Below, piece by piece: positions 1-17,610 of a stretch of 17,964 bases of DNA. Position numbers and translations under genes: made by a program. Origin of the DNA: a virus (Duplodnaviria > Heunggongvirae > Uroviricota > Caudoviricetes); IMG/VR virus record IMGVR_UViG_2563366946_000008. One strand, 5' to 3'. How positions within the stretch are numbered: position 1 is the first letter of the stretch; each line of letters begins with the position of its first letter. Below the pieces are notes generated by a model, which saw nothing but the letters and a program-made list of their open reading frames with translations, was not told where the DNA came from and ran no database searches.

Positions 1-1143
1 CTATGCTGTTTTGATATCTACGATAATCCAGTCTTTACCACGATCATCATTGTATCGGTCGGTCATTTTTCTGGATTTATGGCCTAACAACTTTTGCGTA
101 TCCAGACCCTGTTCCCGATATAACCGTTCTGACAGAGATCGCTGCTCATGAAATGTGGGCGCAGTTCCTTGCTCCCATTTTATGCCACATTTTTCCCGGG
201 CCTTTTTAAAAGCCGTTGTCAGAGTATTCGCAGAAACCTGGTCTCCTCTGTTTGCTTGAGAGGTAGTGTGACGGTAATGGACCAGATATTTACTAACAAC
301 AGCATCCCTGCACTGAGATATAACTTCACGAAGGGTAATATTCAGAGCATCGCATTTCAGGTTAAGCGGAATAGCAAGTTTTGAACCGGTTTTTTCCTGA
401 GTAATGTGCAACATGTCGTCCCATATATCAGAGAATTTCAAATTGCAGATATCGCCTAAACGTTGTCCAGTAACAAGAGCAAGTAGCATGCCGCATTTTA
501 AATAGGGCTGCCGTCTGCTTACGCTGTCAAATATTGCCTGCCATTCGGGCAGTGACAATCTTTGGCGGTTTACTCGATTTCGCGGTTGTTTTGTTGCCTG
601 CGCTGGGTTAAATCCTGGCGGAACATGTCCTGCGTGTTGTGCTTCTTTGAAGACGTCGATCAACACCATTCTCACGACTTGCGCCATCCTGTTATGACCT
701 TCAGCCTTTACAGCATCAATTATTTCGGCAATATCAAGTGCGGTAATATCCTTGAGGTGTTGCATTCCACAATGCTCACGGAAAAGACGAATGGGTTTGC
801 CTTTTTGCCGATAGGAGTTGGGTCTTAGTTCATTATGTTGCAGCCTGTCCTCTTGGATAGAAATATATTTATCAAGCCATTCTGTCACCGTAATGTCTGA
901 GCGCCTGCCTTTCATTCTTTCCAGACGCTCATTGACGCTTAATATTTGTCTGGTACGTTGTTCAGCAATAATGGTATTTGCTTCAGTAGCAACTTGTTTT
1001 GCTTCATTCTCATCAGTTCCTAAGCTATGAAAACGACCGGATAGTGGATGTTTGTATTGCCAATATACCTTTCCGGTTCGCTTATCTAATTTGCAATATA
1101 AATTGGGTATAGAGATTTTGTGAGATCGGGGTCTAGCAGCCAT
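1..1143 (-). CDS. int: Phage tyrosine integrase (site-specific recombinase), 380 aa
   Basis: Full-length ORF; C-terminal catalytic signature visible in translation (R in ...TGQRLGD..., H-x-x-R in ...FHEQRSL..., H and Y in ...LLGHKSRKMTDRYNDD...); overlaps the excisionase-like ORF by 11 nt as in lambdoid int-xis pairs. Stop codon is at window position 1-3, so the att site lies outside the window. Confidence 0.9.
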   Translation of the reverse strand: MAARPRSHKISIPNLYCKLDKRTGKVYWQYKHPLSGRFHSLGTDENEAKQVATEANTIIAEQRTRQILSVNERLERMKGRRSDITVTEWLDKYISIQEDRLQHNELRPNSYRQKGKPIRLFREHCGMQHLKDITALDIAEIIDAVKAEGHNRMAQVVRMVLIDVFKEAQHAGHVPPGFNPAQATKQPRNRVNRQRLSLPEWQAIFDSVSRRQPYLKCGMLLALVTGQRLGDICNLKFSDIWDDMLHITQEKTGSKLAIPLNLKCDALNITLREVISQCRDAVVSKYLVHYRHTTSQANRGDQVSANTLTTAFKKAREKCGIKWEQGTAPTFHEQRSLSERLYREQGLDTQKLLGHKSRKMTDRYNDDRGKDWIIVDIKTA

Positions 1144-1369
1144 CAGCGATTATCCTTTGGAGTTTTGGGTTTGCGTTTATTGGGAGTTGCGGTTCTGCAA
1201 GCGTTCCTACAAAACGGGAATTTCGGTCAATCATCCAGTAGCGACCAACTTTTATAGCGGGTGGGGCCATCATTTTCCCTTGCGCGTATTTTTTCAGAAC
1301 TCGCTCACTTGGTGCTAAGTCCCCAAATTCTTCTTTAGCCCAGTCCTGTAAAGTGATTAGTCGAGACAT
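1133..1369 (-). CDS. xis: Excisionase-like small DNA-binding protein, 78 aa
   Basis: Small ORF immediately upstream of and overlapping int on the same strand; strong RBS (GAGGAGG) 4 nt before the ATG; position and size typical of prophage excisionases. Confidence 0.65.
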   Translation of the reverse strand: MSRLITLQDWAKEEFGDLAPSERVLKKYAQGKMMAPPAIKVGRYWMIDRNSRFVGTLAEPQLPINANPKLQRIIADGC

Positions 1370-1508
1370 TTGTCCTCCTCTTAGCTGCTGAGGGAGTTTG
1401 TGACCGATATATCTGACATGATATTAAGCTCATGGCAGGTACATCTCTTGACTGGTCATAGAGATAAATTTAATGCTGAGAAATGCAGTATTGAATTTAT
1501 CAATTTTT

Positions 1509-1748
1509 CTATTTCCTGCGCATGTCACGTAACTTCTTAATGTGTTCTGCCGTTTCGATCTCTTCTGCTATCCGATCTGCATCAGCTTTATTCACAGGTT
1601 CAAAGTCATGATTAAAGCGGAACATGCTGGCGATACATGTTCTGCCTTTTCGGATGTAGTGAACTTTGTTGTGGGTAGAACGCAGGATTTTGCAGGGAGT
1701 GCCGTGGTGGTCGACGTACCAGGTGTTAGGGTCAATCACTCTGAACAT
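1509..1748 (-). CDS. Hypothetical prophage protein (DUF4222-like), 79 aa
   Basis: ORF in the same transcriptional direction as the early-left operon, overlapping the next gene upstream; family assignment from memory of prophage small proteins, not verified. Confidence 0.5.
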   Translation of the reverse strand: MFRVIDPNTWYVDHHGTPCKILRSTHNKVHYIRKGRTCIASMFRFNHDFEPVNKADADRIAEEIETAEHIKKLRDMRRK

Positions 1749-2061
1749 TCTTGACCTTGTGTTGTGCGGATTGATATTCAGTGCTGATATTCACCTTTAT
1801 AGCGAACACCTTTACCGGTTTATCGCCAAAGTGCGGATGTGTGATTGTCTTCACTTCATATCCGTCATACGGAACATCAATTCTGCGACTGGAATCGTCG
1901 CGCTTCGGATATCCCTTTGTGATAATCAGGCGGTCATATTCCCGGAACATAATTCGCTTATTCCAGTAGTCATTACACAAGCGATACTCTTCCGTTTTCT
2001 CTCCGCGAATCATGGCATCGAAGTATTCACTTTTAACAGCAAGTTGCAGGTTAGCCATCAC
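1732..2061 (-). CDS. Hypothetical protein, possible ASCH/PUA-like fold, 109 aa
   Basis: ORF translationally coupled with its neighbours on both sides (overlapping stop/start); size and composition resemble the small ASCH-domain proteins common in enterobacterial prophages; unverified. Confidence 0.5.
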   Translation of the reverse strand: MMANLQLAVKSEYFDAMIRGEKTEEYRLCNDYWNKRIMFREYDRLIITKGYPKRDDSSRRIDVPYDGYEVKTITHPHFGDKPVKVFAIKVNISTEYQSAQHKVKNVQSD

Positions 2062-2279
2062 TTAATCCCCCTTTGTTTGCGGATAAGCTCCAGATCTTGC
2101 TGGCAACTGGCGCAAGTCCGACAACCCTGAACGGCCAGGCGTCTTCGTTCATCTATCGGATCGCCACACTCACAACAATGAGTGGCAGATACAGCCAGGT
2201 AGTTCAGGCGGCGCATTTTTATTGCTGTGTTGCGCTGTAATTCTTCTATTTCTGATGCTGAATCAATGATGTCTGCCAT
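2058..2279 (-). CDS. TraR/DksA-family C4 zinc-finger protein, 73 aa
   Basis: Translation contains a four-cysteine motif (C-x-C ... C-x2-C: ...HCCECGD...GCRTCASCQ...) in a ~70 aa protein, characteristic of phage TraR/DksA-like regulators. Confidence 0.75.
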   Translation of the reverse strand: MADIIDSASEIEELQRNTAIKMRRLNYLAVSATHCCECGDPIDERRRLAVQGCRTCASCQQDLELIRKQRGIK

Positions 2280-2286
2280 CTTTCAT

Positions 2287-2381
2287 TAATCCCTGAACTG
2301 TTGGTTAATACGCTTGAGGGTGAATGCGAACAATAAAAAAGGAGCCTGTAGCTCCCTGATAATTTTGCTTTTCATGTTCAT
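2287..2381 (-). CDS. Possible small ORF, 31 aa (MNMKSKIIRELQAPFLLFAFTLKRINQQFRD)
   Basis: Not in the supplied ORF track (below its length cutoff); has an AAGGAA Shine-Dalgarno 5 nt upstream of its ATG and lies in the same operon direction. Confidence 0.3.
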
Positions 2382-2472
2382 CGTTCCTTAAAGACGCCGT
2401 TTAACATGCCGATTGCCAGGCTTAAATGAGTCGGTGTGAATCCCTTCAGCGTTACCGTTTCGCGGTGCTTCT

Positions 2473-2655
2473 TCAGTACGCTACGGCAAATGTCATTGAC
2501 GTTTTTGGAAACTGCTGTCTGACTTTTTTGATTTCAGAATTAGCCTGACGGGCAATGCTGCGAAGGGCGTTTTCTTGCTGAGGTGTCACTGAACAAGCCC
2601 CATGTCGGCAAGCATAAGCACACAGAATATGAAGCCCGCTGCCAGAAAAATGCAT
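2473..2655 (-). CDS. Lambda orf61-like small protein, 60 aa
   Basis: Position (third small ORF leftward of exo) and size match the lambda orf60a-orf63-orf61 series; the sequence itself was not recognised with certainty. Confidence 0.45.
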   Translation of the reverse strand: MHFSGSGLHILCAYACRHGACSVTPQQENALRSIARQANSEIKKVRQQFPKTSMTFAVAY

Positions 2656-2665
2656 TCAGTGGTTG

Positions 2666-2857
2666 TCATACCTGGTCTCTCTCATCTGCTTCTGCTTTCG
2701 CCACCATCATTTCCAGCTTTTGTGAAAGGGATGTGGCTAACGTATGAAATTCTTCGTCTGTTTCTGCTGGTATTGGCACAAACCTGACTCCAATTTGAGC
2801 AAGGCTATGTGCCAAATCAATACTCGTTCTTAACTCAACAGGAGATGCTTTGTGCAT
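2666..2857 (-). CDS. Lambda orf63-like small protein, 63 aa
   Basis: Second small ORF leftward of exo, 63 aa, matching lambda gene order and size. Confidence 0.55.
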   Translation of the reverse strand: MHKASPVELRTSIDLAHSLAQIGVRFVPIPAETDEEFHTLATSLSQKLEMMVAKAEADERDQV

Positions 2858-3018
2858 ACCGCCCCCCGTTTATTATTTATCTCCTCAGCCAGCCGCTGGG
2901 CTTTCAGCGGATTTCGGATAACAGAAAGACCGTGAAATACCCAGCCTCGCTTTGTAACGGAGTAGACGAAAGTGATCGCGCCTACCCGGATATTATCGTG
3001 AGGATGGGTCATCGCCAT
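2830..3018 (-). CDS. Lambda orf60a-like small protein, 62 aa
   Basis: Immediately downstream of exo on the same strand and overlapping it, as in lambda. Confidence 0.55.
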
Positions 3019-3689
3019 TGCTCTCCAAATACAAAACCAATTTCAGCCAGTGCTTCGTCCATTTTTTCGATGAACTCCGGCACCATCTCGTCAAAACTCG
3101 CCATGTACTTTTCATCCCGCTCAACCACGACATAATGCAGGCCTTCACGCTTCATTCGTGGGTCATAGTTGGCAAAGTACCAGGCATCTTTTCGTGTCAC
3201 CCACATGCTGTACTGCACCTGGGCCATGTAAGCCGACTTTATGGCCTCGAAACCACCGAGCCGGAACTTCATGAAATCCCGGGAGGTAAACGGGCATTTC
3301 AGCTCAAGGCCATTGCCGTCACTGCATAAACCATCGGGAGAGCAGGCGGTGCGCATACTTTCGTCGCGATAGATGATCGGGGATTCAGTAACATTCACGC
3401 CGGAAGTGAATTCAAACAGGGTTCTGGCGTCGTTCTCGTACTGTTTTCCCCACGCCAGCGCCTTAGCATTAACTTCCGGAGCCACACCGGTGCAAACCTC
3501 AGCCAGCAGGGTGTGGAAGTAGGACATTTTCATGTCAGGCCACTTCTTTCCTGAGCGGGGCTTTGCTATCACGTTGTGAACTTCTGAAGCGGTGATGACG
3601 CCGAGCCGTAATTTGTGCCATGCATCATCCCCCTGTTCGACAGCTCTCACGTCGATCCCGGTACGCTGCAGGATAATGTCCGGTGTCAT
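3009..3689 (-). CDS. exo: Lambda exonuclease (Red alpha), 226 aa
   Basis: Translation ([40 protein letters not shown]...GFVFGEQWR) is near-identical to lambda Exo as I recall it; 226 aa; overlaps bet stop. Confidence 0.95.
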
Positions 3690-5612: not shown

Positions 5613-5748
5613 AAAGAAGATTTCCAATAATCAGAACAAGTCGGCTCCTGTTTAGTTACGAGCGACATTGCTCCGTGTATTCACTCGTTGGAATGAATAC
5701 ACAGTGCAGTGTTTATTCTGTTATTTATGCCAAAAATAAAGGCCACTA

Positions 5749-5949
5749 TCAGGCAGCTTTGTTGTTCTGTTTACCAAGTTCTCTGGCAATCATTGCCGTC
5801 GTTCGTATTGCCCATTTATCGACATATTTCCCATCTTCCATTACAGGAAACATTTCTTCAGGCTTAACCATGCATTCCGATTGCAGCTTGCATCCATTGC
5901 ATCGTTTGAATTGTCCACACCATTGATTTGTATCAATAGTCGTAGTCAT
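5749..5949 (-). CDS. ral: Ral (restriction alleviation protein), 66 aa
   Basis: Translation MTTTIDTNQWCGQFKRCNGCKLQSECMVKPEEMFPVMEDGKYVDKWAIRTTAMIARELGKQNNKAA matches lambda Ral. Confidence 0.85.
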   Translation of the reverse strand: MTTTIDTNQWCGQFKRCNGCKLQSECMVKPEEMFPVMEDGKYVDKWAIRTTAMIARELGKQNNKAA

Positions 5950-6019
5950 ACGGATAGTCCTGGTATTGTTCCATCACATCTTGAGGATGCTCTTCGAACT
6001 CTTCAAATTCTTCTTCCAT
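5933..6019 (-). CDS. Lambda orf28-like acidic micro-protein, 28 aa
   Basis: Manual translation MEEEFEEFEEHPQDVMEQYQDYPYDYDY with an AAGGTGA RBS; its stop overlaps the ral start as in lambda. Confidence 0.55.
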   Translation of the reverse strand: MEEEFEEFEEHPQDVMEQYQDYPYDYDY

Positions 6020-6162
6020 ATATCACCTTAAATAGTGGATTGCGGTAGTAAAGATTGTGCCTGTCTTTTAACCACATCAGGCTCGGTGGTTCTCGTGTAC
6101 CCCTACAACGAGAAATCGGATAAACTCTATTCACCCCTACAGAGAGCAAAAGAGAAACGCCG

Positions 6163-6744
6163 ATGAACAACTCATGGTGGCAGGAACTAATGCATTTTTT
6201 CCTGCAAGGAATGACACTTAAACAGTTGATTCATATGCTAATCATCCTGATCATATTGATTATTGTTATGCCGGTAAGCGTAAAAGAATGGATAAACCTG
6301 CATAATCCAGAAATCCTTCCTCATTACTGGATGTATTACATCCTGTTGTTTTGCGTTAGCTATGTGCTTAACGGCGTTGTTAATTCCGCTTATCACGCTG
6401 TGACTGAAAGAATTGAGGTATTCGCTGCTCAGAAGCGCAAATCTAAAGAAGAAAAATATGTGCAAGATTTGTTTGATTCGTTAACTCTTGGAGAAAGAGC
6501 GTATTTGGCATTCGCTGTAGCCGCTAATAACCAGCTACAAACGGAAAAGGGCGCTCATGAATCAATTTCATTGCTCAAAAAAGGACTCCTCGTTCGAAGG
6601 CCTCCTGCTGTTGGATATCCTGATACCGACCGTTTCGTTATCCCTGAAAGCTATAGACATGAGTGCTACATTAGGTTTGCCAGGAAGGCAGACAGCCTTA
6701 TGGATGAACTTATCGCTCAGGATAAGCATGGCAAAAACAAGTAA
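6163..6744 (+). CDS. sieB: SieB superinfection-exclusion protein, 193 aa, membrane protein
   Basis: Opposite strand to the pL operon, in the lambda sieB position between ral and N; hydrophobic N-terminal segments (LIHMLIILIILIIVMPV, YYILLFCVSYVLNGVV); length matches lambda SieB. Confidence 0.8.
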   Translation: MNNSWWQELMHFFLQGMTLKQLIHMLIILIILIIVMPVSVKEWINLHNPEILPHYWMYYILLFCVSYVLNGVVNSAYHAVTERIEVFAAQKRKSKEEKYVQDLFDSLTLGERAYLAFAVAANNQLQTEKGAHESISLLKKGLLVRRPPAVGYPDTDRFVIPESYRHECYIRFARKADSLMDELIAQDKHGKNK

Positions 6745-6760
6745 TTAGCAAATGAATTTA

Positions 6761-7033
6761 TCATCTCGCCGTCAGTTGTTTTGATTTCCGGTAGCCTGCC
6801 GCGTAAAGAGCTACGTTCGGAAGACAAGTTGAACCTTCATATTTTCTGGTCAACGTTGTCAGAGTTATCACTTCTGCTCTCATTGCTGGTTTGAGCTTGC
6901 ATTGCAAGACCACTCGTGAAGGGGTTGGCCTGTGTAGCTTGTCGGAGCTGATCGCCTCCTGACTTTGCAGATTTGCGCGACGAGCTCTACGGCGAGAAGC
7001 TGCGGTGCCTTTAAATTCTGTTTTTCTGGACAT
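6761..7033 (-). CDS. N: N-like transcription antiterminator with N-terminal arginine-rich motif, 90 aa
   Basis: N-terminus MSRKTEFKGTAASRRRARRANLQ carries an arginine-rich motif resembling the boxB-binding ARMs of phage 21/P22 N proteins; strong GGGAGG RBS 5 nt upstream; located where N sits in lambdoid genomes. Not lambda N itself. Confidence 0.6.
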   Translation of the reverse strand: MSRKTEFKGTAASRRRARRANLQSQEAISSDKLHRPTPSRVVLQCKLKPAMRAEVITLTTLTRKYEGSTCLPNVALYAAGYRKSKQLTAR

Positions 7034-7144
7034 GGATTCCTCCCGAATAAACTTTGGCGATGCAATCTCGAAGCTCCTCCTGAGACGGTTGCTTCGGCAT
7101 TGTGAACCGCCCCGGGTTTCCTGGAGAGTGTTTTATCTGTGAAC

Positions 7145-8035
7145 TCAGGCTGCCAGATCATCGTTTCCGATGGAAGCATAATAAGCTTTTTCTGCTTCTG
7201 CCGGAGGAGTATGGCCCAGCCTTTCCAGCAATCGTCGATTGTTATACCAGTCCACCCACGTGAGTGTGGCCAGTTCCACTTCTGCACGGTTTTTCCAGCT
7301 CTTACGGTGTATTACCTCCGCTTTGTAAAGACCATTGATGCTCTCCGCCATCGCGTTGTCATACGAGTCGCCTGTACTTCCTGTTGATGCCAGTAATCCG
7401 GCTTCCTTAAGCCGCTGTGTGTAGGCCAGCGATACATACTGAGAACCTTTATCACTGTGATGGACCGTGCCGGACGGTCGACGGGCCCATAACGCCTGCT
7501 CCAGTGCATCCAGCACGAATGTCGTTTCCATGGACGATGAGACCCGCCACCCCACGATGTATCCGGCAAACACATCAATGATGAACGCCACATAGACGAA
7601 GCCCCGCCATGTGCTGACGTAAGTAAAATCAGCCACCCACAGCTGGTCAGGTCGTTCTGCCACGAACTGACGGTTTACGCGGTCGCCTGCGGCAACGGCT
7701 TTCCGGCTGATGGTCGTACGGACCTTTTTACCCCGGAGAACACCGGCAAGTCCCATAACCGCCATGAGACGTGCCACAGTGCATCTGGCCACTCTGATAC
7801 CTTCCCGTAACAACTGACGCCAGACTTTACGCACACCGTATACCTTGTGATTTTCATCGTATACGCGCTGTATCTCTTTCTTCAGCCAGTCATCGCGCTG
7901 CGCACGGGCACTGCGTTTATCCGGATGATGTCGCTGTTGCTGACAGTGGTAATACGTTGACGGGGCAATATGCAGTTCGCTGCATAGCGGTCCGACCCCG
8001 TACTGCTCACGCAGCTTATCCAGCAGTGGCATCAT
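7145..8035 (-). CDS. IS3-family transposase OrfB (DDE catalytic part), 296 aa
   Basis: 296-aa ORF overlapping OrfA by 4 nt; size and position typical of IS3-family OrfB integrase-like catalytic domain. Confidence 0.9.
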
Positions 8036-8358
8036 TTTTTCCAGAGGCGGTCGAACTCCGCCTTCGCAAAATAAGCGGAAGCCTGGCGAAGGATATCGTT
8101 ACTGCGGCGCAGTTCACGATTTTCACGTTCCAGCTCTTTCAGACGCTGACGTTCAGCGGTGGTGAGCCCTCCATCACCGCCCCCGGTATCCCGCTCATGC
8201 TGGCGAACCCAGACACGCAGAGTCTCCGGCGTACAGCCAATCTTTGGAGCAATGGAACAAATTGTCGCCCATTGTGAGTCATATTCGCTCTGACTTTCCA
8301 GAACCATACGAATCGCCCTCTGACGGACTTCGGGGGAAAAACGAGTATTTTTAGTCAT
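8032..8358 (-). CDS. IS3-family transposase OrfA (HTH DNA-binding part), 108 aa
   Basis: Translation [30 protein letters not shown]... matches IS629/IS1203 OrfA as I recall it; ends in an A6 run (TGG AAA AAA TGA) overlapping the OrfB start, the classic IS3-family -1 frameshift window. Confidence 0.9.
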
Positions 8359-8412
8359 CCTGTTTACCTCTTTCTCAGGAAGTTTAGTCTCCAGGATTCC
8401 CGGGGCGGTTCA

Positions 8413-8679
8413 CAGCGTGACGTTGATCGCGCAGAAACAGATTTACTTATCAATCTGTCAGCTATTACCCAGCGCGGTCTGGCAAAGATGATTGGCTGTC
8501 ATGAATCGAAGATAAGCAGAACGGACTGGAGATTTATTGCTTCGGTCTTGTGTGCTTTCGGAATGGCATCAGACATCAGTCCGATTAGCAGGGCTTTTAA
8601 GTATGCGCTTGATGGACTCACCAATAAAAAACGCCCGGCGGCAACCGAGCGTTCTGAACAAATCCAGATGGAATTCTGA
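8413..8679 (+). pseudogene. cII: cII transcriptional activator, 5'-truncated by the IS element (about 8-10 N-terminal codons and all upstream signals missing)
   Basis: The reading frame is open from the first base after the IS (8413) and ends ...LTNKKRPAATERSEQIQMEF, identical to the lambda CII C-terminus as I recall it; the upstream part (…ISRTDWRFIASVLCAFG…) is CII-like but divergent. No start codon or RBS at the true N-terminus. Confidence 0.75.
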
Positions 8680-8711
8680 GGTCATTACTGGATCAATCCA
8701 CAGGAGTCATT

Positions 8712-9611
8712 ATGACAAATACAGCAAAAATACTCAACTTCTGCAGAGGTAACTTTGCCAAACAGGAGCGTAATGTGGCAGATCTCGATGATGGTTACGC
8801 CAGACTATCAAATATGCTGCTTGAGGCTTATTCAGGCGCAGATCTGACCAAGCGACAGTTTAAAGTGCTGCTTGCCATTCTGCGTAAAACCTATGGATGG
8901 AATAAACCAATGGACAGAATCACCGATTCTCAACTTAGCGAGATTACAAAGTTACCCGTCAAACGGTGCAATGAAGCCAAGTTAGAACTCGTCAGAATGA
9001 ATATTATCAAGCAGCAAGGCGGCATGTTTGGACCAAATAAAAACATCTCAGAATGGTGTATCCCTCAAAACGAGGGAAAATCCCCTAAAACGAGGGATAA
9101 AACATCCCTCAAATTGGGGGATTGCTATCCCTCAAAACAGGGGGACACAAAAGACACTATTACAAAAGAAAAAAGAAAAGATTATTCGTCAGAGAATTCT
9201 GGCGAATCCTCTGACCAGCCAGAAAACGACCTTTCTGTGGTGAAACCGGATGCTGCAATTCAGAGCGGCAGCAAGTGGGGGACAGCAGAAGACCTGACCG
9301 CCGCAGAATGGATGTTTGACATGGTGAAGACCATCGCGCCATCAGCCAGAAAACCGAATTTTGCAGGGTGGGCTAACGATATCCGCCTGATGCGTGAACG
9401 TGACGGACGTAACCATCGCGACATGTGTGTACTGTTCCGCTGGGCATGCCAGGACAACTTCTGGTCCGGTAACGTGCTGAGCCCGGCCAAACTCCGCGAC
9501 AAGTGGACCCAGCTCGAAATCAACCGTAACAAGCAACAGGCAGGTGTGACAGCCTGCAAACCAAAACTCGACCTGACAAACACTGACTGGATTTACGGGG
9601 TGGATTTATGA
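8712..9611 (+). CDS. O: Replication initiator O, 299 aa
   Basis: Translation MTNTAKILNFCRGNFAKQERNVADLDDGYARLSNMLLEAYSGADLTKRQFKVLLAILRKTYGWNKPMDRITDSQLSEITKLP... matches lambda O with a few substitutions; AGGAG RBS; contains the ori iterons. Confidence 0.95.
   Translation: MTNTAKILNFCRGNFAKQERNVADLDDGYARLSNMLLEAYSGADLTKRQFKVLLAILRKTYGWNKPMDRITDSQLSEITKLPVKRCNEAKLELVRMNIIKQQGGMFGPNKNISEWCIPQNEGKSPKTRDKTSLKLGDCYPSKQGDTKDTITKEKRKDYSSENSGESSDQPENDLSVVKPDAAIQSGSKWGTAEDLTAAEWMFDMVKTIAPSARKPNFAGWANDIRLMRERDGRNHRDMCVLFRWACQDNFWSGNVLSPAKLRDKWTQLEINRNKQQAGVTACKPKLDLTNTDWIYGVDL
9060..9190 (+). repeat. Lambda-type replication origin inside O: four ~19-bp iterons plus AT-rich unwinding region
   Basis: Four tandem imperfect palindromic iterons (ATCCCTCAAAACGAGGGA, ATCCCCTAAAACGAGGGA, ATCCCTCAAATTGGGGGA, ATCCCTCAAAACAGGGGGA) at about 9060-9145, followed by an A-rich tract ACAAAAGACACTATTACAAAAGAAAAAAGAAAAGATTATT. 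Confidence 0.85.
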
Positions 9612-10309
9612 AAAACATCGCCGCACAGATGGTTAATTTTGACCGTGAGCAGATGCGTCGGATCGCCAACAACATGCCGGAACAGTACGACGAAAAGCCG
9701 CAGGTACAGCAGGTAGCGCAGATCATCAACGGTGTGTTCAGCCAGTTACTGGCAACTTTCCCGGCGAGTCTGGCTAACCGTGACCAGAACGAACTGAACG
9801 AAATCCGCCGCCAGTGGGTTCTGGCTTTCCGGGAAAACGGGATCACCACAATGGAACAGGTTAACGCAGGAATGCGCGTAGCCCGTCGGCAGAATCGACC
9901 ATTTCTGCCATCACCCGGGCAGTTTGTTGCATGGTGCCGGGAAGAAGCATCCGTTATCGCCGGACTGCCAAACGTCAGCGAGCTGGTTGATATGGTTTAC
10001 GAGTATTGCCGGAAGCGAGGCCTGTATCCGGATGCAGAGTCTTATCCGTGGAAATCGAACGCGCACTACTGGCTGGTTACCAACCTGTACCAGAACATGC
10101 GGGCCAATGCGCTGACTGACGCGGAATTACGACGCAAGGCTGCCGATGAACTGACCTGTATGACAGCGCGAATTAACCGTGGTGAGACGATACCTGAACC
10201 AGTAAAACAACTTCCTGTCATGGGCGGCAGACCTCTAAATCGTGTTCAGGCGCTGGCGAAGATCGCAGAAATTAAAGCTAAGTTAGGACTGAAAGGAGCA
10301 AGTGTATGA
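9608..10309 (+). CDS. P: Replication protein P (DnaB helicase loader), 233 aa
   Basis: Translation MKNIAAQMVNFDREQMRRIANNMPEQYDEKPQVQQVAQIINGVFSQLLATFPASLANRDQNELNEIRRQWVLAFRENGITTMEQVNAGMRVARRQNRPFLPSPGQFVAWCREE... matches lambda P; start overlaps O stop (ATGA). Confidence 0.95.
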   Translation: MKNIAAQMVNFDREQMRRIANNMPEQYDEKPQVQQVAQIINGVFSQLLATFPASLANRDQNELNEIRRQWVLAFRENGITTMEQVNAGMRVARRQNRPFLPSPGQFVAWCREEASVIAGLPNVSELVDMVYEYCRKRGLYPDAESYPWKSNAHYWLVTNLYQNMRANALTDAELRRKAADELTCMTARINRGETIPEPVKQLPVMGGRPLNRVQALAKIAEIKAKLGLKGASV

Positions 10310-10596
10310 CGGGCAAAGAGGCAATTATTCATTACCTGGGGACGCATAATAGCTTCTGTGCGCCGGACGTTGCCGCGCTAACAGGCGCAACAGTAACCAG
10401 CATAAATCAGGCTGCGGCTAAAATGGCACGGGCAGGTCTTCTGGTTATCGAAGGTAAGGTCTGGCGAACGGTGTATTACCGGTTTGCTACCAAGGAAGAA
10501 CGGGAAGGAAAGATGAGCACGAACCTGATTTTTAAGGAGTGTCGCCAGAGTGCCACGATGAAACGGATATTGGCGGTATATGGAGTTAAAAGATGA
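10306..10596 (+). CDS. ren: Ren (Rex exclusion escape protein), 96 aa
   Basis: 96-aa ORF directly after P with overlapping ATGA junction; sequence consistent with lambda Ren. Confidence 0.85.
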   Translation: MTGKEAIIHYLGTHNSFCAPDVAALTGATVTSINQAAAKMARAGLLVIEGKVWRTVYYRFATKEEREGKMSTNLIFKECRQSATMKRILAVYGVKR

Positions 10597-10669
10597 CCAT
10601 CTACATCACTGAGCTAATAACAGGCCTGCAGGTAATCGCAGGCCTTTTTATTTGGGGGAGAGGGAAGTC

Positions 10670-11110
10670 ATGAAAAAACTAACCTTTGAAATTCGATCTC
10701 CGGCACATCAGCAAAACGCTATTCACGCAGTACAGCAAATCCTTCCAGACCCAACCAAACCAATCGTAGTAACCATTCAGGAACGCAACCGCAGCTTAGA
10801 CCAAAACAGGAAGCTATGGGCCTGCTTAGGTGACGTCTCTCGTCAGGTTGAATGGCATGGTCGCTGGCTGGATGCAGAAAGCTGGAAGTGTGTGTTTACC
10901 GCAGCATTAAAGCAGCAGGATGTTGTTCCTAACCTTGCCGGGAATGGCTTTGTGGTAATAGGCCAGTCAACCAGCAGGATGCGTGTAAGCGAATTTGCGG
11001 AGCTATTAGAGCTTATACAGGCATTCGGTACAGAGCGTGGCGTTAAGTGGTCAGACGAAGCGCGACTGGCTCTCGAATGGAAAGCGCGATGGGGAGATCG
11101 GGCTGCATGA
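10670..11110 (+). CDS. ninB: NinB (Orf) recombination mediator, 146 aa
   Basis: Translation from the internal Met (MKKLTFEIRSPAHQQNAIHAVQQILPDPTKPIVVTIQERNRSLDQNRKLWACLGDVSRQVEWHGRWLDAESWKCVFTAALKQQDVVPNLAG...) matches lambda NinB; first gene of the nin region after ren. Confidence 0.85.
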   Translation: MKKLTFEIRSPAHQQNAIHAVQQILPDPTKPIVVTIQERNRSLDQNRKLWACLGDVSRQVEWHGRWLDAESWKCVFTAALKQQDVVPNLAGNGFVVIGQSTSRMRVSEFAELLELIQAFGTERGVKWSDEARLALEWKARWGDRAA

Positions 11111-11634
11111 CTATCAAATCAAATACGCCAGCACACGACAAGGACTGCTGGCAAACGCCGCTTTGGCTTTTTGATGCACTGGATATTGAGTTTGGATTCT
11201 GGCTGGATTCGGCAGCGAGCGACAAAAATGCTCTGTGCGCTCACTGGCTAACTGAGGACGACGACGCGCTCAATTCTGAGTGGGTAAGCCACGGTGCAAT
11301 CTGGAATAACCCACCGTACAGCAATATCAGGCCGTGGGTGGAAAAAGCCGCTGAGCAGTGTATACAACAGCGACAGACGGTAGTGATGCTTGTGCCAGAG
11401 GATATGTCTGTCGGATGGTTCAGCAAGGCTCTGGAGAGTGTTGACGAAGTTCGTATTATCACTGATGGACGGATTAATTTTATCGAACCATCGACAGGGC
11501 TGGAGAAGAAGGGAAACAGCAAAGGCTCCATGCTGCTGATTTGGCGACCGTTCATCAGTCCTCGACGGATGTTTACTACCGTATCCAAAGCGGCATTGAT
11601 GGCGATCGGGCAGGGCGTCAGGAGGGCTGCATGA
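11107..11634 (+). CDS. Phage Dam-like DNA N6-adenine methyltransferase (orphan, no cognate endonuclease nearby), 175 aa
   Basis: Contains the amino-methyltransferase catalytic motif NPPY (…[10 protein letters not shown]…); start overlaps ninB stop (ATGA); occupies the ninC/ninD slot of the nin region. Confidence 0.7.
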
Positions 11635-11807
11635 GACGACAGCGACGAAGCATCACCGACATAATCTGCGAAAACTGCAAATACCTTCCAACGAAACGCT
11701 CCAGAAATAAACGCAAGCTAATCCCAAAAGAATCTGACGTAAAAACCTTCAATTACACAGCCCACCTGTGGGATATCCGGTGGCTAAGATATCGTGCGAG
11801 GAAATGA
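11631..11807 (+). CDS. ninE: NinE-like protein, 58 aa
   Basis: Translation [58 protein letters not shown] resembles lambda/DLP12 NinE; ATGA overlap with the upstream gene. Confidence 0.7.
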
Positions 11808-12151
11808 CAATGGATTATTCACAGTTAAGTGATTTTGAAATTAACAGAATGGTAGGAGACATAATTTTTAAAGGCCTTTGGGCAAGTAAACCGGAAACAT
11901 CAGGGAATAACACCAACAAATGGTATTACGGAAATGCTGATACAACTTTTGAGCCATTAAATCATTTGCCTGACTACTGCAATGATCCGAGCGCTTCATG
12001 GCCGATTATTGAGAAATACAGGATTTCTATCTTAGACCAGTTAACTGAATGGTGTGTGGATGCAAAAGGCGTAAGCCCAATATTTGATACCAGACCTCTC
12101 CGCGCCGCCATGATTGTCTTTCTCCTGATGCAGGAGGCCAATAATGCTTAG
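11804..12151 (+). CDS. Hypothetical nin-region protein, 115 aa
   Basis: ORF translationally coupled to ninE (ATGA overlap, GAGGA RBS); no family recognised from sequence. Confidence 0.5.
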
Positions 12152-12338
12152 CCCATCTCAATCCCTTCAATACCTGAAAGAAAGCATAGAGCGGGCTTCA
12201 ATGTGCACAGAGTGGATTCTATCTAGGTTTAGCGCATACAGAAGATTGCCGGTAAAGGGCATGCCAAGCAAGTCGATGCTGCATATGCAAAAGAATGCGC
12301 GCTGGAAGGTATGGCGAGAACACAGGTTATGTGGCTGA
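12144..12338 (+). CDS. NinF-like small ORF (N-terminus [14 protein letters not shown]…), 64 aa; possibly frameshifted or mosaic
   Basis: Start overlaps the upstream stop; N-terminal residues resemble lambda NinF as I recall it, but the downstream part does not. A different frame (to 12361) carries a C-terminal-looking segment ending …[26 protein letters not shown] whose stop overlaps the rusA GTG start. Confidence 0.3.
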
Positions 12339-12357
12339 AAGAGGGGGTTATTAAGGC

Positions 12358-12720
12358 GTGAATACCTACAGCATCACATTACCCTGGCCTCCGAGCAATA
12401 ATCGCTATTACCGCCATAATCGCGGGCGCACGCACGTCAGCGCAGAGGGGCAGGCATACCGCGATAACGTCGCCCGAATCATTAAAAACGCAATGCTGGA
12501 TATCGGCCTGGCTATGCCTGTGAAAATCCGCATTGAGTGCCACATGCCGGATCGCCGTCGCCGTGACCTGGATAATCTGCAAAAAGCCGCTTTTGACGCA
12601 CTCACTAAAGCAGGTTTCTGGCTGGATGATGCTCAGGTCGTTGATTACCGCGTTGTGAAGATGCCTGTTACCAAAGGTGGGAGGCTGGAACTGACCATCA
12701 CCGAAATGGGGAATGAATGA
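12358..12720 (+). CDS. rusA: RusA Holliday-junction resolvase, 120 aa (GTG start)
   Basis: Translation [108 protein letters not shown]… matches the RusA family (acidic catalytic residues, DDAQ motif). Confidence 0.85.
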
Positions 12721-12857
12721 TGTTTGAGTTTAATATGGCAGAACTTCTTCGCCACCGCTGGGGGCGTCTGCGCTTATATCGTTTCCTCGGTTCTGTTTTG
12801 ACCGATTACCGAATACTGAAGAATTACGCCAAAACCCTGACAGGAACAGGAGTATGA
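12717..12857 (+). CDS. ylcG: YlcG-like small protein, 46 aa
   Basis: Not in the ORF track; manual translation [46 protein letters not shown]; start overlaps rusA stop; same position as ylcG in DLP12-type prophages. Confidence 0.5.
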
Positions 12858-12942
12858 AGTCAGAGATAACAATCAACTAATACTGTTTTGTTGATTTTTG
12901 CTTGTAATTGGCGTTCTGGTCTGATTTTTGTGGAGTAAGTTG

Positions 12943-13326
12943 ATGCGTGATATTCAGATGGTTCTTGAGCGTTGGGGTGCGTGGGCGGCTAATAATCATG
13001 AAGATGTGACCTGGTCGTCCATTGCCGCCGGTTTTAAGGGATTAATTCCTTCAAAAGTAAAATCTCGCCCGCAATGTTGTGACGATGACGCGATGATCAT
13101 TTGCGGGTGCATGGCCCGTCTGAAAAAGAACAACAGCGATTTACACGATTTATTAGTAGATTATTATGTATGTGGTATGACATTCATGTCACTGGCAAGT
13201 AAGCATTGCTGCTCGGATGGTTATATCGGGAAAAGGTTACAGAAGGCTGAGGGCATAATTGAAGGGATGTTAATGGCATTAGATATCCGGTTAGATATGG
13301 ATATCGTTGCTAATAATTCTAATTGA
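12943..13326 (+). CDS. quuD: Q-like late-gene antiterminator (DLP12 QuuD type), 127 aa
   Basis: Translation from the internal Met ([62 protein letters not shown]…) with a cysteine cluster; GGAG RBS 7 nt upstream; last gene before the late region. Confidence 0.8.
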
Positions 13327-13463
13327 TATGCAATTGTTTACTAAAAGTTATTAAAAATGGGGCGTGGAAACGCCCCCAAAATAAAGGGTAATATATAACA
13401 GAAGGTTTATATAGTAAGAAGCAAGGTAGTGCTTCTAAAGGAAGTGGCTTGAGGGCTCCACTT

Positions 13464-13505
13464 ATATGTTGCGGAGGCAAAGCCTCCCGCAACATATCTT
13501 TTTCG
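13464..13505 (+). terminator. Intrinsic terminator (tR'-like) about 140 bp downstream of the Q-like gene; may also end the convergent porin transcript
   Basis: Near-perfect 14-bp inverted repeat ATATGTTGCGGAGG-CAAAG-CCTCCCGCAACATAT followed by CTTTTTCG on the plus strand; sits 10 bp beyond the porin stop codon on the other strand. Confidence 0.6.
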
Positions 13506-13514
13506 TAAGTCAGA

Positions 13515-14597
13515 TTAGAACTGATAAACCAGACCTACAGCGACGATGTCGTCGGTATCAATACCAGCTGTTTTGGTAAACTTACTATCGTCAATTAAGT
13601 TGATTTTGTAATCAACAAAAGTGGACATGTTTTTATTAAAGTAGTAAGTAGCACCGACATCGACATACTTGACTAAGTCTCGGTCACCATGAACACCAAG
13701 GTCTTTACCTTTTGACTGAAGGTAAGCAACAGATGGACGCAGACCGAAGTCAAACTGATATTGTGCTACTGCTTCAAAGTTTTGTGCTTTGTTTGCAATA
13801 TGGTTATTACCAAAAACGGTCATATTCTGAGTTTCAGAATATGTGGTAGCCAGATAGATATTGTTCGCATCATATTTCAGGCCTGCAGCCCATACTTCCG
13901 CATTTTTGCCGGAGGCATTGAATTTGCTCTTACCATAGGCGACCTGACCGTCAGTGCGATCTGATTTAGCATAGGTTGCACCCACGCCGAATCCTTCATA
14001 CTCATAAGTAGTGGAGAAACCGAAACCATCACCATTGGCTTCAGTTACGTCAGTGCGGTCATTTTTACCCTGATACTGAGCAGCAAAGTTCAGGCCATCG
14101 ACCAGACCAAAGAAGTCGTTGTTACGATAAGTTGCAACACCAGTAGTGCGACCAGTCATGAACACATCTGTTTGGGTCCAGGTATCACCACCGAATTCTG
14201 GCAGAACGTCAGTCCACGCACCGATGTCGTATGCTACACCGTAGTTACGGCCGTAATCGATTGAGCCGTAATCACCAAATTTCAGGCCTGCAAATGCAAG
14301 ACGGGTTTTGTCTTTGGAAGAACCTTGAGATTCAGCACGGTTGCCTTTGAATTCATATTCCCACTGACCGAAACCAGTCAGTTGATCGTTGATTTGGGTT
14401 TCACCTTTGAAGCCAAGACGGGCATAAGTAGTATCACCATCATCTGCATCATTAGAGGAGAAGTAGTGCTTGGCATTAACTTTCCCGTATAGATCCAGCT
14501 TGTTACTGTCTTTATTATAAATTTCAGCTGCCTGAGCAGACATCGCCATCAGTACTGATGCAGCTACAGCAGAAATTGCCACTGTTAATTTTTTCAT
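13515..14597 (-). CDS. nmpC: Outer-membrane general porin of the OmpC/NmpC/Lc family (lysogenic-conversion moron), 360 aa with signal peptide
   Basis: Signal peptide [23 protein letters not shown] followed by [17 protein letters not shown]…, porin hallmarks (…PEFGGDT…, …[29 protein letters not shown]…, C-terminal …VAVGLVYQF). Start taken at the internal Met, not the track's upstream ATG. Confidence 0.92.
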
Positions 14598-15023
14598 TGT
14601 ACGCCCTTTTTTTGAACTATTATTAAAAAATGATATCACTGCGCGATAAATATTCATCTAATCAATGTGATTATTTCAAGATGTAAGTTTTAGTTTCTCA
14701 TTTAATTTGTGAAGTAGATCTCTATTTTTATCTGAACCTTTTCTATCTAATCCTATTCATGGCTCTTGTCTGAACAAAAATAAATCTATTAGCTAATTTA
14801 TATTAATGGCACTTATTTATAAGTGCTCTATAATTCTTTAGCTTAATTTAAACAAACTAAAAATAACATCGGAAATTATTAACTGGTTATTTGTTGAAGT
14901 TTTCTTATGCATTTGTGGTGGTGTTTTGAACACTCGGTGGCATTCTCACAAATATCATTTAGTAGTTTACGTACGTAAAAAATTGGTTATGCTGTTAAGA
15001 GTGGTTACTTCGTCACACAGCTT

Positions 15024-15056
15024 AAACCCGCCGTCGAGCGGGTTTTTCCATTTTTT
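15024..15056 (+). terminator. Candidate intrinsic terminator or pause hairpin about 130 bp upstream of the holin gene
   Basis: Stem AAACCCGC / GCGGGTTT with 6-nt loop, followed by TTTTTCCATTTTTT on the plus strand. Confidence 0.5.
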
Positions 15057-15185
15057 GAGTCTCGATATTAGCTGATAACCCAATACCTGAGTTATTCACT
15101 GACTCCGAATCTGTTACGTTTCTGCCTTTATTGCGATACGTAGTATCCCCTTAATTTACACCCGCTTTGTCTGCGAGGTGGGGTT

Positions 15186-15401
15186 ATGAAATCCATGGAT
15201 AAGTTAACAACGGGTGTCGCCTATGGTACCTCAGCAGGTAGTGCCGGGTACTGGTTTTTACAGTTGCTCGATAAAGTCACGCCCTCACAGTGGGCGGCAA
15301 TAGGTGTGCTGGGTAGCCTGGTATTTGGCCTGCTGACGTACCTGACAAACCTTTATTTCAAGATTAAAGAAGATAAGCGCAAGGCTGCGAGAGGTGAATA
15401 A
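15186..15401 (+). CDS. S: Phage-21-type class II pinholin with dual-start motif (MKSM…), 71 aa
   Basis: Translation [71 protein letters not shown]: two transmembrane segments, Met1/Met4 dual start with Lys2, charged C-terminus; GAGGTGG RBS. Confidence 0.9.
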
Positions 15402-15898
15402 TGCCTCCATCATTACGAAAAGCCGTTGCTGCTGCTATTGGTGGCGGAGCAATTGCTATAGCATCAGTGTTAATCACTGGCCCAAGTGGTAACGATGGTC
15501 TGGAAGGTGTCAGCTACATACCATACAAAGATATTGTTGGTGTATGGACTGTATGTCACGGGCATACAGGAAAAGACATCATGCTCGGTAAAACGTATAC
15601 CAAAGCAGAATGCAAAGCCCTCCTGAATAAAGACCTTGCCACGGTCGCCAGACAAATTAACCCGTACATCAAAGTCGATATACCGGAAACAATGCGCGGC
15701 GCTCTTTACTCATTCGTTTACAACGTGGGTGCTGGCAATTTCAGAACATCGACGCTTCTTCGCAAAATAAACCAGGGCGATATCAAAGGCGCATGTGATC
15801 AGCTACGTCGCTGGACATATGCTGGCGGTAAGCAATGGAAAGGTCTCATGACTCGTCGTGAGATTGAGCGTGAAATCTGTTTGTGGGGTCAGCAATGA
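15401..15898 (+). CDS. R: SAR endolysin (T4-lysozyme-like muramidase with N-terminal signal-anchor-release domain), 165 aa
   Basis: N-terminal weakly hydrophobic Gly/Ala-rich segment [20 protein letters not shown] followed by a lysozyme-like catalytic region (E…D…T in …[24 protein letters not shown]…); start overlaps the holin stop. Confidence 0.9.
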
Positions 15899-16356
15899 AC
15901 AGAGTAACCGCGATTATCTCCGCTCTGGTTATCTGCATCATCGTCTGCCTGTCATGGGCTGTTAATCATTACCGTGATAACGCCATTACCTACAAAGCCC
16001 AGCGCGACAAAAATGCCAGAGAACTGACGCTGGCGAACGCGGTAATTACTGACATACAGATGCGTCAGCGTGATGTTGCTGCGCTCGATGCAAAATACAC
16101 GAAGGAGTTAGCTGATGCGAAAGCTGAAAATGATGCTCTGCGTGATGATGTTGCCGCTGGTCGTCGTCGGTTGCACATCAAAGCAGTCTGTCAGTCAGTG
16201 CGTGAAGCCACCACCGCCTCCGGCGTGGATAATGCAGCCTCCCCCCGACTGGCAGACACCGCTGAACGGGATTATTTCACCCTCAGAGAGAGGCTGATCA
16301 CTATGCAAAAACAACTGGAAGGAACCCAGAAGTATATTAATGAGCAGTGCAGATAG
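15895..16356 (+). CDS. Rz: Rz i-spanin (inner-membrane spanin subunit), 153 aa
   Basis: N-terminal transmembrane segment ([18 protein letters not shown]) followed by a charged, coiled-coil-like periplasmic domain; start overlaps the endolysin stop (ATGA). Confidence 0.8.
16115..16297 (+). CDS. Rz1: Rz1 o-spanin lipoprotein, embedded in the +1 frame of Rz, 60 aa
   Basis: Lipoprotein signal peptide with lipobox ([15 protein letters not shown]) followed by a proline-rich mature region ([18 protein letters not shown]); lies entirely inside Rz in another frame. Confidence 0.75.
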
Positions 16357-16387
16357 AGCTGCCCATATCGATGGGCAACTCATGCAA

Positions 16388-16681
16388 TTATTGTGAGCAA
16401 TACACACGCGCTTCCAGCGGAGTATAAATGCCTAAAGTAATAAAACCGAGCAATCCATTTACGAATGTTTGCTGGGTTTCTGTTTTAACAACATTTTCTG
16501 CACCACCACAAATTTTTGCTGCATCGACAGTTTTCTTCTGCCCAATTCCCGAAACGAAGAAATGATGGGTGATGGTTTCCTTTGGTGTTACTGCTGTAGG
16601 TTTGTTTCCAACAGTAAACGTCTGTTGAGCACATCCTGTAATAAGCATTGCCAGAGCGGCAGAAAACAACATTTTTTTCAT
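16388..16681 (-). CDS. bor: Bor lipoprotein (serum-resistance moron), 97 aa
   Basis: Translation from the internal Met, MKKMLFSAALAMLITGCAQQTFTVGNKPTAVTPKETITHHFFVSGIGQKKTVDAAKICGGAENVVKTETQQTFVNGLLGFITLGIYTPLEARVYCSQ, matches lambda Bor; lipobox LITGC; opposite strand to the lysis genes as in lambda. Confidence 0.9.
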   Translation of the reverse strand: MKKMLFSAALAMLITGCAQQTFTVGNKPTAVTPKETITHHFFVSGIGQKKTVDAAKICGGAENVVKTETQQTFVNGLLGFITLGIYTPLEARVYCSQ

Positions 16682-17161
16682 CTTATTATCCTGCATTGTT
16701 AAAAACGGCAGAATCCTATGTGACAACAATTAAACGATAGTTAAATGGATTGATGAAAATTAAAACTACACAGGTGGGCTCAGACTATTGGAGGAAGTTG
16801 GGGACACTCAGAATCCTGTGGAATGAAATAAACCGGTCTATCCGTCCATTACCCTTTTAGCTGCGCTGTATCGTCGCCGTATTCCCGCATTAACCATGAC
16901 CGTAGCCCGACGGGGAATTCCTTCTGCGTGAGTGTGCGGGAATAATTAAAAACGATGCACACCGGGTTTTTACCGCGTTAATGATTCGCGGGTTTATCCC
17001 GGTGCGATGGTGGAAGAAACAGGAAGCTGTATTACAGAAAGTGCTACTACTGTATCCCGATGCGATGTATGTAATGTGAGTCAGATAATGGCACAGGATG
17101 TGGTGATGTGGCAGTCTGGAACACAGGATATATTGTCAGAATAAGACCCGTAGGAATAAAA

Positions 17162-17488
17162 ATGAAAAGACGCCTTTTACTACTTTTTCTGTTATCTGTC
17201 CTGGCAGTGGGATGCTCGCAGCAAAAAGCTGATGAGCCCCGGCAATTAGTGACGGTGTATCCACGATATCCGGAATATGCTGCAGCAAATTATATCAAGG
17301 GGCTGGTTGAGGTTAAGTTCGATATTGGTGCTGATGGGACTGTGACACGGATCGTTTTTCTCCGCTCAGAGCCTCATAATTTGTTTCGTGATGAAGTGGT
17401 GAAGGCCATGGCGAAATGGCGATTTGAAAAGAATCGCCCCTGTCAGGGAGTGAAGAGACAATTTATCTTTACGCCGTCACGTCCTTGA
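17162..17488 (+). CDS. Lipoprotein with a TonB C-terminal-domain-like fold, 108 aa
   Basis: Lipoprotein signal peptide with lipobox (MKRRLLLLFLLSVLAVGC); the mature part (…VYPRYPEYAAANYIKGLVEVKFDIGADGTVTRIVFLRSEPHNLFRDEVVKAMAKWRFEKN…) aligns by eye with the TonB C-terminal domain (…[56 protein letters not shown]…); AGGAA RBS. Confidence 0.6.
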   Translation: MKRRLLLLFLLSVLAVGCSQQKADEPRQLVTVYPRYPEYAAANYIKGLVEVKFDIGADGTVTRIVFLRSEPHNLFRDEVVKAMAKWRFEKNRPCQGVKRQFIFTPSRP

Positions 17489-17580
17489 TGCTTCCAGGTA
17501 GAGAGGGGCTGGAAGCAGGAGAAAAATGAAAGAGCCAGCGGTTATATTTTTGTCATGGCTGACGAGGAATGATGGAAGAA

Positions 17581-17603
17581 GGCGTTGTATGCCACACAAC
17601 GCC
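17581..17603. terminator. Candidate bidirectional terminator hairpin between convergent ORFs
   Basis: 8-bp stem GGCGTTGT / ACAACGCC with 7-nt loop, followed on the plus strand by a T-rich run (TCACTGTTCATTTCTTCTTTTTCTC). Confidence 0.35.
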
Positions 17604-17610
17604 TCACTGT

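Follow-up and report, generated by a model that had tools for sequence, protein, structure and literature searches.

The DNA between xis and exo in the window (the whole 17,964-nucleotide stretch of virus record IMGVR_UViG_2563366946_000008 analysed here) is, on what we consider a well-supported reading, the distal, N-antiterminated part of the pL operon (the "exo-xis region") of a phage-21-like (Jouyvirus) icd prophage. It is built of a lambda block extending to the orf73 stop codon at position 2058, two mutually unrelated cassettes that code for an ASCH-like and a DUF4222 protein, and a phage-21-type xis-int module, and its genes probably function as proposed for each of them below. This corrects the map of the region: the lambda-like block reaches through orf73, and the variable slot begins exactly at the orf73 stop codon.

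Gene order and genomic setting

Throughout the left 5 kb of the window the genes lie on the minus strand. Starting from the left end these are int (1-1143), xis of the Exc family (1133-1369), a spacer (1370..1508) that carries a 16-bp AT-rich inverted repeat at 1463-1501 and is nearly invariant in alignments with phage 21 and Lambda_2E9, the DUF4222 gene (1509-1748, 79 aa), the ASCH-like gene (1732-2061, 109 aa from a GTG or 108 aa from an ATG at 2058), orf73 for a TraR/DksA-family C4 zinc finger protein (2058-2279, 73 aa), a 31-aa ORF (2286-2381), and homologs of orf61 (2390..2655), orf63 (2666-2857) and orf60a (2830-3018), with exo, bet, gam and kil/cIII following from 3009. The four ORFs picked out by an earlier sequence-only reading are thus all present. 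The remainder of the window encodes ral, sieB, a cI-type repressor, cro, cII, O, P, ren, nin genes, Q, lysis genes and iss, a complete lambdoid early region which places the cluster at the promoter-distal end of the pL operon. The prophage is of a type typical of ExPEC.

The genes of the cluster are closely packed: the 31-aa ORF ends 6 nt before the ATG of orf73, the orf73 stop and the ASCH-like start overlap in the sequence GTGATG, and the ASCH-like ORF overlaps the start of the DUF4222 gene by 17 nt, an arrangement that fits the translational coupling suggested for these ORFs. They would be translated from a single transcript on which successive stops and starts overlap or abut.

Positions 1300-2700 are 100% identical in DNA to phage ev207, PhiR63_2, the prophage at icd in UTI89, S88, APEC O1 and IHE3034 and many others, and 97.4% identical to phage 21. 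The cluster itself is already known: its sequence, gene calls and domain names stand in the RefSeq/GenBank entries of phages 21 and ev207 and of hundreds of E. coli genomes, with existing records labeling the trio as DUF4222, ASCH (or hypothetical) and TraR-DksA zinc finger. A scan of 1100-3100 against Rfam recovered only a meaningless match of a miRNA model to an AT-rich hairpin (E=0.53), antisense ORFs on the plus strand matched no significant family and include no credible gene, and PDB sequence searches with single proteins and profiles gave no meaningful matches. The composition is unremarkable except for a lower GC content, as is typical of accessory DNA.

The mosaic junction with the lambda block

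The order exo-orf60a-orf63-orf61-(31-aa ORF)-orf73 is preserved in the window, with DUF1317, DUF1382, the orf61 homolog, the 31-aa ORF and orf73 arranged in this order downstream of exo. The lambda record NC_001416 annotates no gene between ea22 and orf61; the gap nevertheless holds an unannotated 73-aa ORF (30392-30613) and an unannotated 31-aa ORF (30620-30715), both in the corresponding position. A DNA alignment of the window, lambda and phage 21 shows near-identity from orf63 through the orf73 stop and divergence immediately after AAGTGA, which sets the end of the window/lambda homology at the GTGATG of 2056..2061 (minus strand). Past this junction lambda runs on into ea22, beginning with its GTG start codon; the window and phage 21 run on into the ATGGCTAAC of the ASCH-like gene, which occupies the place directly downstream of orf73, where ea22 is absent from the window.

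The non-lambda accessory DNA is thereby confined to 1509-2057; the adjoining xis-int module on the left, of the phage-21 type, is not lambda-like either. The proposal that the whole cluster replaces ea8.5 and ea22 therefore holds in part: since orf73 and the 31-aa ORF belong to lambda's own block, the positional counterparts of ea22/ea8.5/orf55 are the ASCH-like and DUF4222 genes alone. This agrees with the published description of the exo-xis region as a conserved orf60a-orf63-orf61-orf73-ea22 block followed by variable genes (PMC8614690). The int-proximal slot is indeed variable among lambdoid phages, as had been supposed: apart from the lambda contents, 933W carries an Ea22-like gene, several hypothetical genes, a DUF551 gene and an ASCH gene, and Lambda_2E9 only the DUF4222 gene.

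Orf73 is the counterpart of a characterized RNA polymerase-binding protein

Judged by its sequence, the TraR-like ORF is the ortholog of lambda Orf73, with 66 of 73 residues (90%) identical to the product of NC_001416 30392-30613. Its assignment to the TraR/DksA zinc fingers is sound: it matches Pfam zf-dskA_traR (PF01258, E=6.7e-9, 36.0 bits against a cutoff of 24.9) and phrog_54, "DksA-like zinc-finger protein" (E=2.5e-25). Its full-length alignment to NCBIfam TIGR02419 (C4_traR_proteo, positions 3-64 of 64), on the other hand, scores 55.1 bits and falls short of the curated cutoff of 59.7. The features retained are: 1) an N-terminal M-A-D3-I-I-D6-S-A8, that is, the DxxDxA motif which reaches the RNAP active-site region (PMC9239242, PMC8614690). 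2) A zinc finger of the form C35xxC38-17-C56xxC59, with additional cysteines at C36 and C53. 3) E44-R-R-R47-L48, the same ExxRL as in lambda Orf73; the basic residues of ExxRK/ExxRL are equivalent to R48/R49 of TraR and make rim-helix and beta'-Si3 contacts (PMC9239242, PMC8614690).

The lambda protein binds RNAP, complements a dksA null mutant and, both in vitro and in vivo, inhibits rRNA and r-protein promoters without ppGpp; it slows host growth, raises burst size and increases the phage yield after induction about 4-fold (PMC9239242). In one other study, as cited in PMC9239242, orf73 reportedly influenced phage yield in the opposite direction. The expectation that a TraR-like factor here would act on host RNAP thus has experimental backing from a 90%-identical protein, and the statement that none of the cluster's functions is established is outdated for this gene. 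Given this identity and the intact motifs, we infer that the window protein would occupy the RNAP secondary channel without ppGpp and shut down rRNA and r-protein promoters, which would in turn lead to slower host growth and a higher phage yield.

The 31-residue ORF and a terminator-like hairpin

The 31-aa ORF is present in lambda with an identical translation and probably corresponds to the lambda "orf2313". In phage 21 and Lambda_2E9 it is annotated with 29 aa, in phage 21 as a "putative secreted protein", and in both the sequence ATGA joins its start to the stop of the unbroken orf61 frame. Searches of Pfam, NCBIfam and PHROG returned no family match. A consensus scan recognized a terminator-like element inside this ORF (2329..2357, minus strand), namely a hairpin at 2339-2357 with an 8-bp stem and a 3-nt loop followed by T6ATT; folding of the 56 nt around it gives -12 kcal/mol (z=-2.1), and neither the stem nor the T-run varies between the window, lambda and phage 21. 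The tL3 terminator of lambda is, we assume, located around this region.

These observations give some weight to the alternative that the 31-aa ORF is not a functional gene and that its conservation is that of an intrinsic terminator of the pL operon, read through under N antitermination, a reading we regard as possible, though on balance the less probable one. The hairpin with its T6ATT (2357-2339), the fold z-score and the want of a family match are in its favor, as is the DNA conservation itself: the spacer DNA with the ORF is 95-99% identical across about 180 phages, which leaves a codon-level test without power and hence yields no codon-level signal for the ORF. Against this, ribosome profiling in lambda reportedly revealed an additional 31-aa peptide gene in the exo-xis block (PMC8614690), and an overlap such as the ATGA shared with the stop of the intact orf61 is what coupled genes typically show. 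Moreover, the two roles are compatible with each other, and it is possible that the ORF has both a coding and a terminator function.

The DUF4222 protein

Membership of the leftmost ORF of the cluster in the DUF4222 family is borne out by matches to Pfam PF13973 (E=3.6e-19, 68.5 bits against a cutoff of 27) and phrog_285 (E=6e-37); NCBIfam returned nothing for it. AlphaFold2 (AF2) predicts with confidence a small beta-barrel with a C-terminal helix. A diverged DUF4222 gene in a Citrobacter prophage is also located next to xis, and comparison with this copy gives a pN/pS of about 0.27.

The functional data for this family concern RgdR (ECs1581) of an EHEC prophage-like element, which itself scores 82 bits on PF13973. 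RgdR activates LEE1, represses motility, including that of UPEC, and binds DNA weakly and non-specifically; these properties are known only for RgdR and C1493, and the RGD tripeptide and K35 are important residues in RgdR (PMC3378721). By analogy the DUF4222 protein of the window, with an SH3/Tudor-like barrel and helix, might act as a cofactor without sequence specificity that alters host transcription.

A stronger version of this analogy would have it act, like RgdR, as a regulator in lysogenic conversion: made from the prophage, it would tune virulence, motility or surface genes of ExPEC. The activities of RgdR on LEE1 and on motility, UPEC included (PMC3378721), would suit such a role, as would a prophage that is typical of ExPEC and carries iss. 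Nevertheless, we hold it to be unlikely on several counts. The gene belongs to the pL operon, whose transcription is repressed in a lysogen, and no promoter-like site precedes it on its strand. The protein is only 24% identical to RgdR, and a BLAST alignment that pairs RgdR residue 24 with residue 11 of the window protein places P7-N8-T9 opposite RGD (20-22) and L22 opposite K35, so that it lacks the RgdR functional residues and is to be seen as a family member rather than an RgdR ortholog. The supplement of PMC3378721 lists for IHE3034 only a 99-aa RgdR ortholog, and the window DUF4222 protein is not among the copies given there.

The ASCH-like protein

The second cassette encodes a member of phrog_625 (E=2.5e-51), a phage family for which an exhaustive profile search recovered 1,266 representative clusters at 50% identity. 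The earlier assignment to the ASCH/PUA-like fold receives mixed support. At the sequence level the protein misses the Pfam cutoff (PF04266, E=0.068, 14.3 against 21.2 bits, residues 7-29 only), a mere 6 of 60 diverged relatives match this model weakly (best E=0.003), NCBIfam returned nothing, and profiles of the family do not reach the solved ASCH structures in the PDB. In contrast, the modeled fold and the GxKxxExR motif speak for it. The AF2 model (pLDDT 83) shows an ASCH-type beta-barrel with a helix between strands 1 and 2 and has ASCH structures as its best Foldseek matches, with weak E-values. The octapeptide GxKxxExR, which lines the cavity of ASCH domains and is defined in PMC6803910, appears as G19-E-K21-T-E-E24-Y-R26, and among 60 members at 36-54% identity K21 is invariant while G19, E24 and R26 are each at least 90% conserved. 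The pN/pS of the gene is 0.15-0.25, so that it is, like the DUF4222 gene, under purifying selection. The core of the protein comprises residues 1-93; its final 15 aa are a read-through tail that arose where the stop codon TAA became TAT, in the window as in phage 21, and that extends into the DUF4222 start.

With a PUA-like barrel and an intact GKER octapeptide the protein most likely binds RNA or a nucleoside, and our best guess is a protein that acts on RNA or on a nucleoside through a pocket of catalytic type; of the earlier suggestion that it could bind RNA or DNA, an RNA-directed role is plausible from the modeled fold and the motif. All 19 of the ASCH proteins assayed in a recent study, a set consisting of cellular proteins with no phage member, deacetylate ac4C on tRNA, with the K and E of the motif being essential (bioRxiv 10.64898/2026.02.27.708502), and the window protein may similarly hydrolyze N4-acyl-cytidine, for example ac4C on tRNA. 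A literature search found no functional work on phage ASCH proteins; the conserved catalytic-type motif offers a concrete assay.

A different role, proposed for genes of this slot in the sequence-only reading, is anti-defence: the ASCH-like or DUF4222 protein, or both, might be, for instance, a PUA-like decoy or inhibitor directed against modification-dependent restriction or other host immunity. We think there is little prospect of this. Neither has homology to a known system component in PADLOC, which, however, covers defence and not anti-defence proteins; we found no literature support for such a role; and the conserved GKER motif is of a catalytic type that suits an enzyme or a ligand pocket better than a decoy.

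The elongator tRNA-Met of E. coli carries ac4C34. It is conceivable, though improbable, that the ASCH-like protein is a phage eraser of tRNA ac4C or another N4-acyl-cytidine acting alongside Orf73, with the parallel option that DUF4222 is a Tudor-like RNAP-binding cofactor. If the former were true, the distal pL operon would hit the host's translation capacity twice, in ribosome synthesis and in tRNA decoding; if the latter, it would encode a two-protein RNAP-reprogramming pair.

Two cassettes with independent distributions

By their distribution across sequenced genomes the ASCH-like and DUF4222 genes are separate single-gene cassettes. A DNA search with positions 1500-2065 recovered 367 matching phage records, and both genes are found together in only 8 of these. 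The ASCH-like gene occurs without DUF4222 in 933W, VT2-Sakai, HK022, Salmonella phage Emek and many siphoviruses of Salmonella and Klebsiella; DUF4222 occurs without the ASCH-like gene in many "Lambda_ev" Jouyviruses. Alignments place the junctions of both cassettes at gene boundaries. Lambda_2E9 passes from orf73 straight into DUF4222, and in 933W and HK022 the shared segment opens at the start codon of the ASCH-like gene and ends just beyond its stop, where both continue with a terminator hairpin, annotated as tL4 in X51962. In the virulent Jerseyvirus AG11 the ASCH-like gene lies in the early region, adjoining a DUF551/Eaa gene. Both families are very widespread: of 5,426 complete E. coli genomes, 684 carry the two genes side by side, and 2,799, about half, have one or both of them.

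It follows that the cluster is very unlikely to be one co-inherited, co-functional module of three or four ORFs that replaced ea8.5/ea22 as a unit. The tight packing with overlapping stops and starts might suggest one, as might the joint annotation of the trio in 591-684 E. coli genomes, but orf73 and the 31-aa ORF are part of the conserved block and stand beside ea22 in lambda itself, and the other two genes each occur alone and with other neighbors. The distribution already largely refutes a single accessory unit. A reading of the ORFs as random open frames or artefacts of annotation, at which their shortness and the family-less 31-aa ORF might hint, can be dismissed in view of the strong PHROG and Pfam matches, the size of the ASCH-like family (1,266 representative clusters), pN/pS values of 0.15-0.27, confident AF2 folds and antisense ORFs without significant matches; for the three larger ORFs this reading is refuted. 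What remains is a real but ordinary and very common lambdoid mosaic, in which orf73, characterized in lambda, is the one gene with a clear mechanism.

Comparison with known systems

The Orf73 protein of the window keeps the DxxDxA motif, the C4 finger and the ExxRL hallmark known from lambda Orf73 and F-plasmid TraR, together with the two additional cysteines that set lambda Orf73 apart. It differs from the latter (73 aa) in seven substitutions, H27Y, Q28L, I30V, V49A, E61Q, S67R and S72I, that leave the hallmark motifs untouched. The two genes occupy the same place downstream of orf61 and the 31-aa ORF, but the downstream neighbor is the ASCH-like gene in the window and ea22 in lambda. Correspondingly, ea22/ea8.5/orf55 of lambda share with the two cassettes the position between orf73 and xis and early expression from pL, whereas their families, Ead_Ea22 and Lambda_ea8_5, are unrelated to ASCH-like and DUF4222 proteins in sequence or family.

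The ASCH superfamily, typified by E. coli YqfB, T. thermophilus ASCH, human EOLA1 and TRIP4 and Z. mobilis ZmASCH, displays a PUA-like beta-barrel with a helix after strand 1, as modeled here, and EOLA1 has the "GKER"-type octapeptide at the same numbering, G19/K21/E24/R26. In contrast to these proteins, the core of the window protein is much shorter (about 93 aa), it lies below the Pfam threshold in a family of its own, phrog_625, and the 15-aa read-through tail is a feature of this copy. RgdR of the element Sp7/CP-933C belongs to the same family, PF13973, as the DUF4222 protein, and both are small, basic and encoded by mobile elements; however, RgdR has 99 aa against 79 and is encoded upstream of the primase in a P4-like element rather than next to xis in a pL operon.

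At the level of the whole region, the same genes in the same order are found in phage ev207 (gp34-gp36, NC_049949), in UTI89 (UTI89_RS06115-06125) and in phage 21 (CPT_21_36 to CPT_21_39, OL657228). In the window orf61 is shortened by a 4-bp deletion to an ORF at 2473-2655 with an out-of-frame C-terminal remnant at about 2390-2470, and RefSeq marks the UTI89 copy as "frameshifted". In phage 21 orf61 is intact; apart from this and a few substitutions, the two regions are essentially alike.

Results and Discussion

The sequence-only reading had taken the TraR-like gene next to the ASCH-like gene as foreign to lambda, probably because orf73 carries no annotation in the lambda RefSeq record. This view does not hold, as lambda itself possesses orf73 at NC_001416 30392-30613 (2893-3114 of the lambda comparison stretch), as well as the 31-aa ORF at 30620-30715 (3121-3216), which is likewise unannotated in that record. 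Both ORFs of lambda have been treated in the literature despite the missing annotation.

The neighboring orf61 (window 2390-2655; lambda stretch 3213-3525) appears to be a truncated allele in the window, by a 4-bp deletion, and the reference lambda copy also appears truncated, by an extra A in an A-run. An intact ORF of 71-93 aa is found in phage 21 (4079-4294 of its stretch) and Lambda_2E9 (1114-1395 of its stretch). The window and lambda have kept the sequence of its C-terminal portion (KHRETVTL.GFTPTHLSLAIGMLNGVFKER), although there it is no longer in frame. For the intact form RefSeq gives the name "cell division protein ZapA", but all Pfam ZapA matches are sub-threshold (E 0.0025-0.08).

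At the 3' end of the ASCH-like gene (window 1732-1790), 933W and HK022 have a TAA stop codon, whereas the window and phage 21 have TAT and therefore a 15-aa tail that extends over the DUF4222 start; this tail is of low confidence in the predicted structure (pLDDT below 50). In HK022 and 933W the ASCH-like gene has on its 3' side a hairpin rich in GC, for which the annotation is terminator tL4; the window lacks this hairpin. The HK022 copy of this gene, unannotated in RefSeq (NC_002166; about 2001-2290 of the HK022 stretch), shows G19R in a GxKxxExR octapeptide that is otherwise conserved. The 140-bp xis-DUF4222 spacer, which hardly differs in phage 21 and Lambda_2E9, contains an AT-rich inverted repeat of 16 bp, GATAAATTTAAT...ATTGAATTTATC (window 1463-1501), followed on the plus strand by a T-rich run; the sole Rfam match of this repeat was a meaningless miRNA model.

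Unlike the window, 933W (2133-3033 of its stretch), Salmonella phage Emek and the virulent Jerseyvirus AG11 (2313-2779 of its stretch) have a DUF551/EaA-like gene directly adjoining the ASCH-like gene. A variant arrangement of the ASCH-like and DUF4222 pair, at 94% identity, occurs in E. coli M16807 (NZ_CP031256), with a dATP/dGTP pyrophosphohydrolase-domain gene beside it in place of the TraR-like gene.

For window positions of about 5700-17964 the comparison was made through the matching UTI89 prophage, the alignment of the window reaching only about 5600. Beyond that point the UTI89 prophage encodes sieB, a Dam-type methyltransferase and iss/bor, and a gene for an OmpC-like porin separates Q from the lysis genes; where lambda carries rexAB, beside the repressor, it has a DUF1828 gene and a hypothetical gene.
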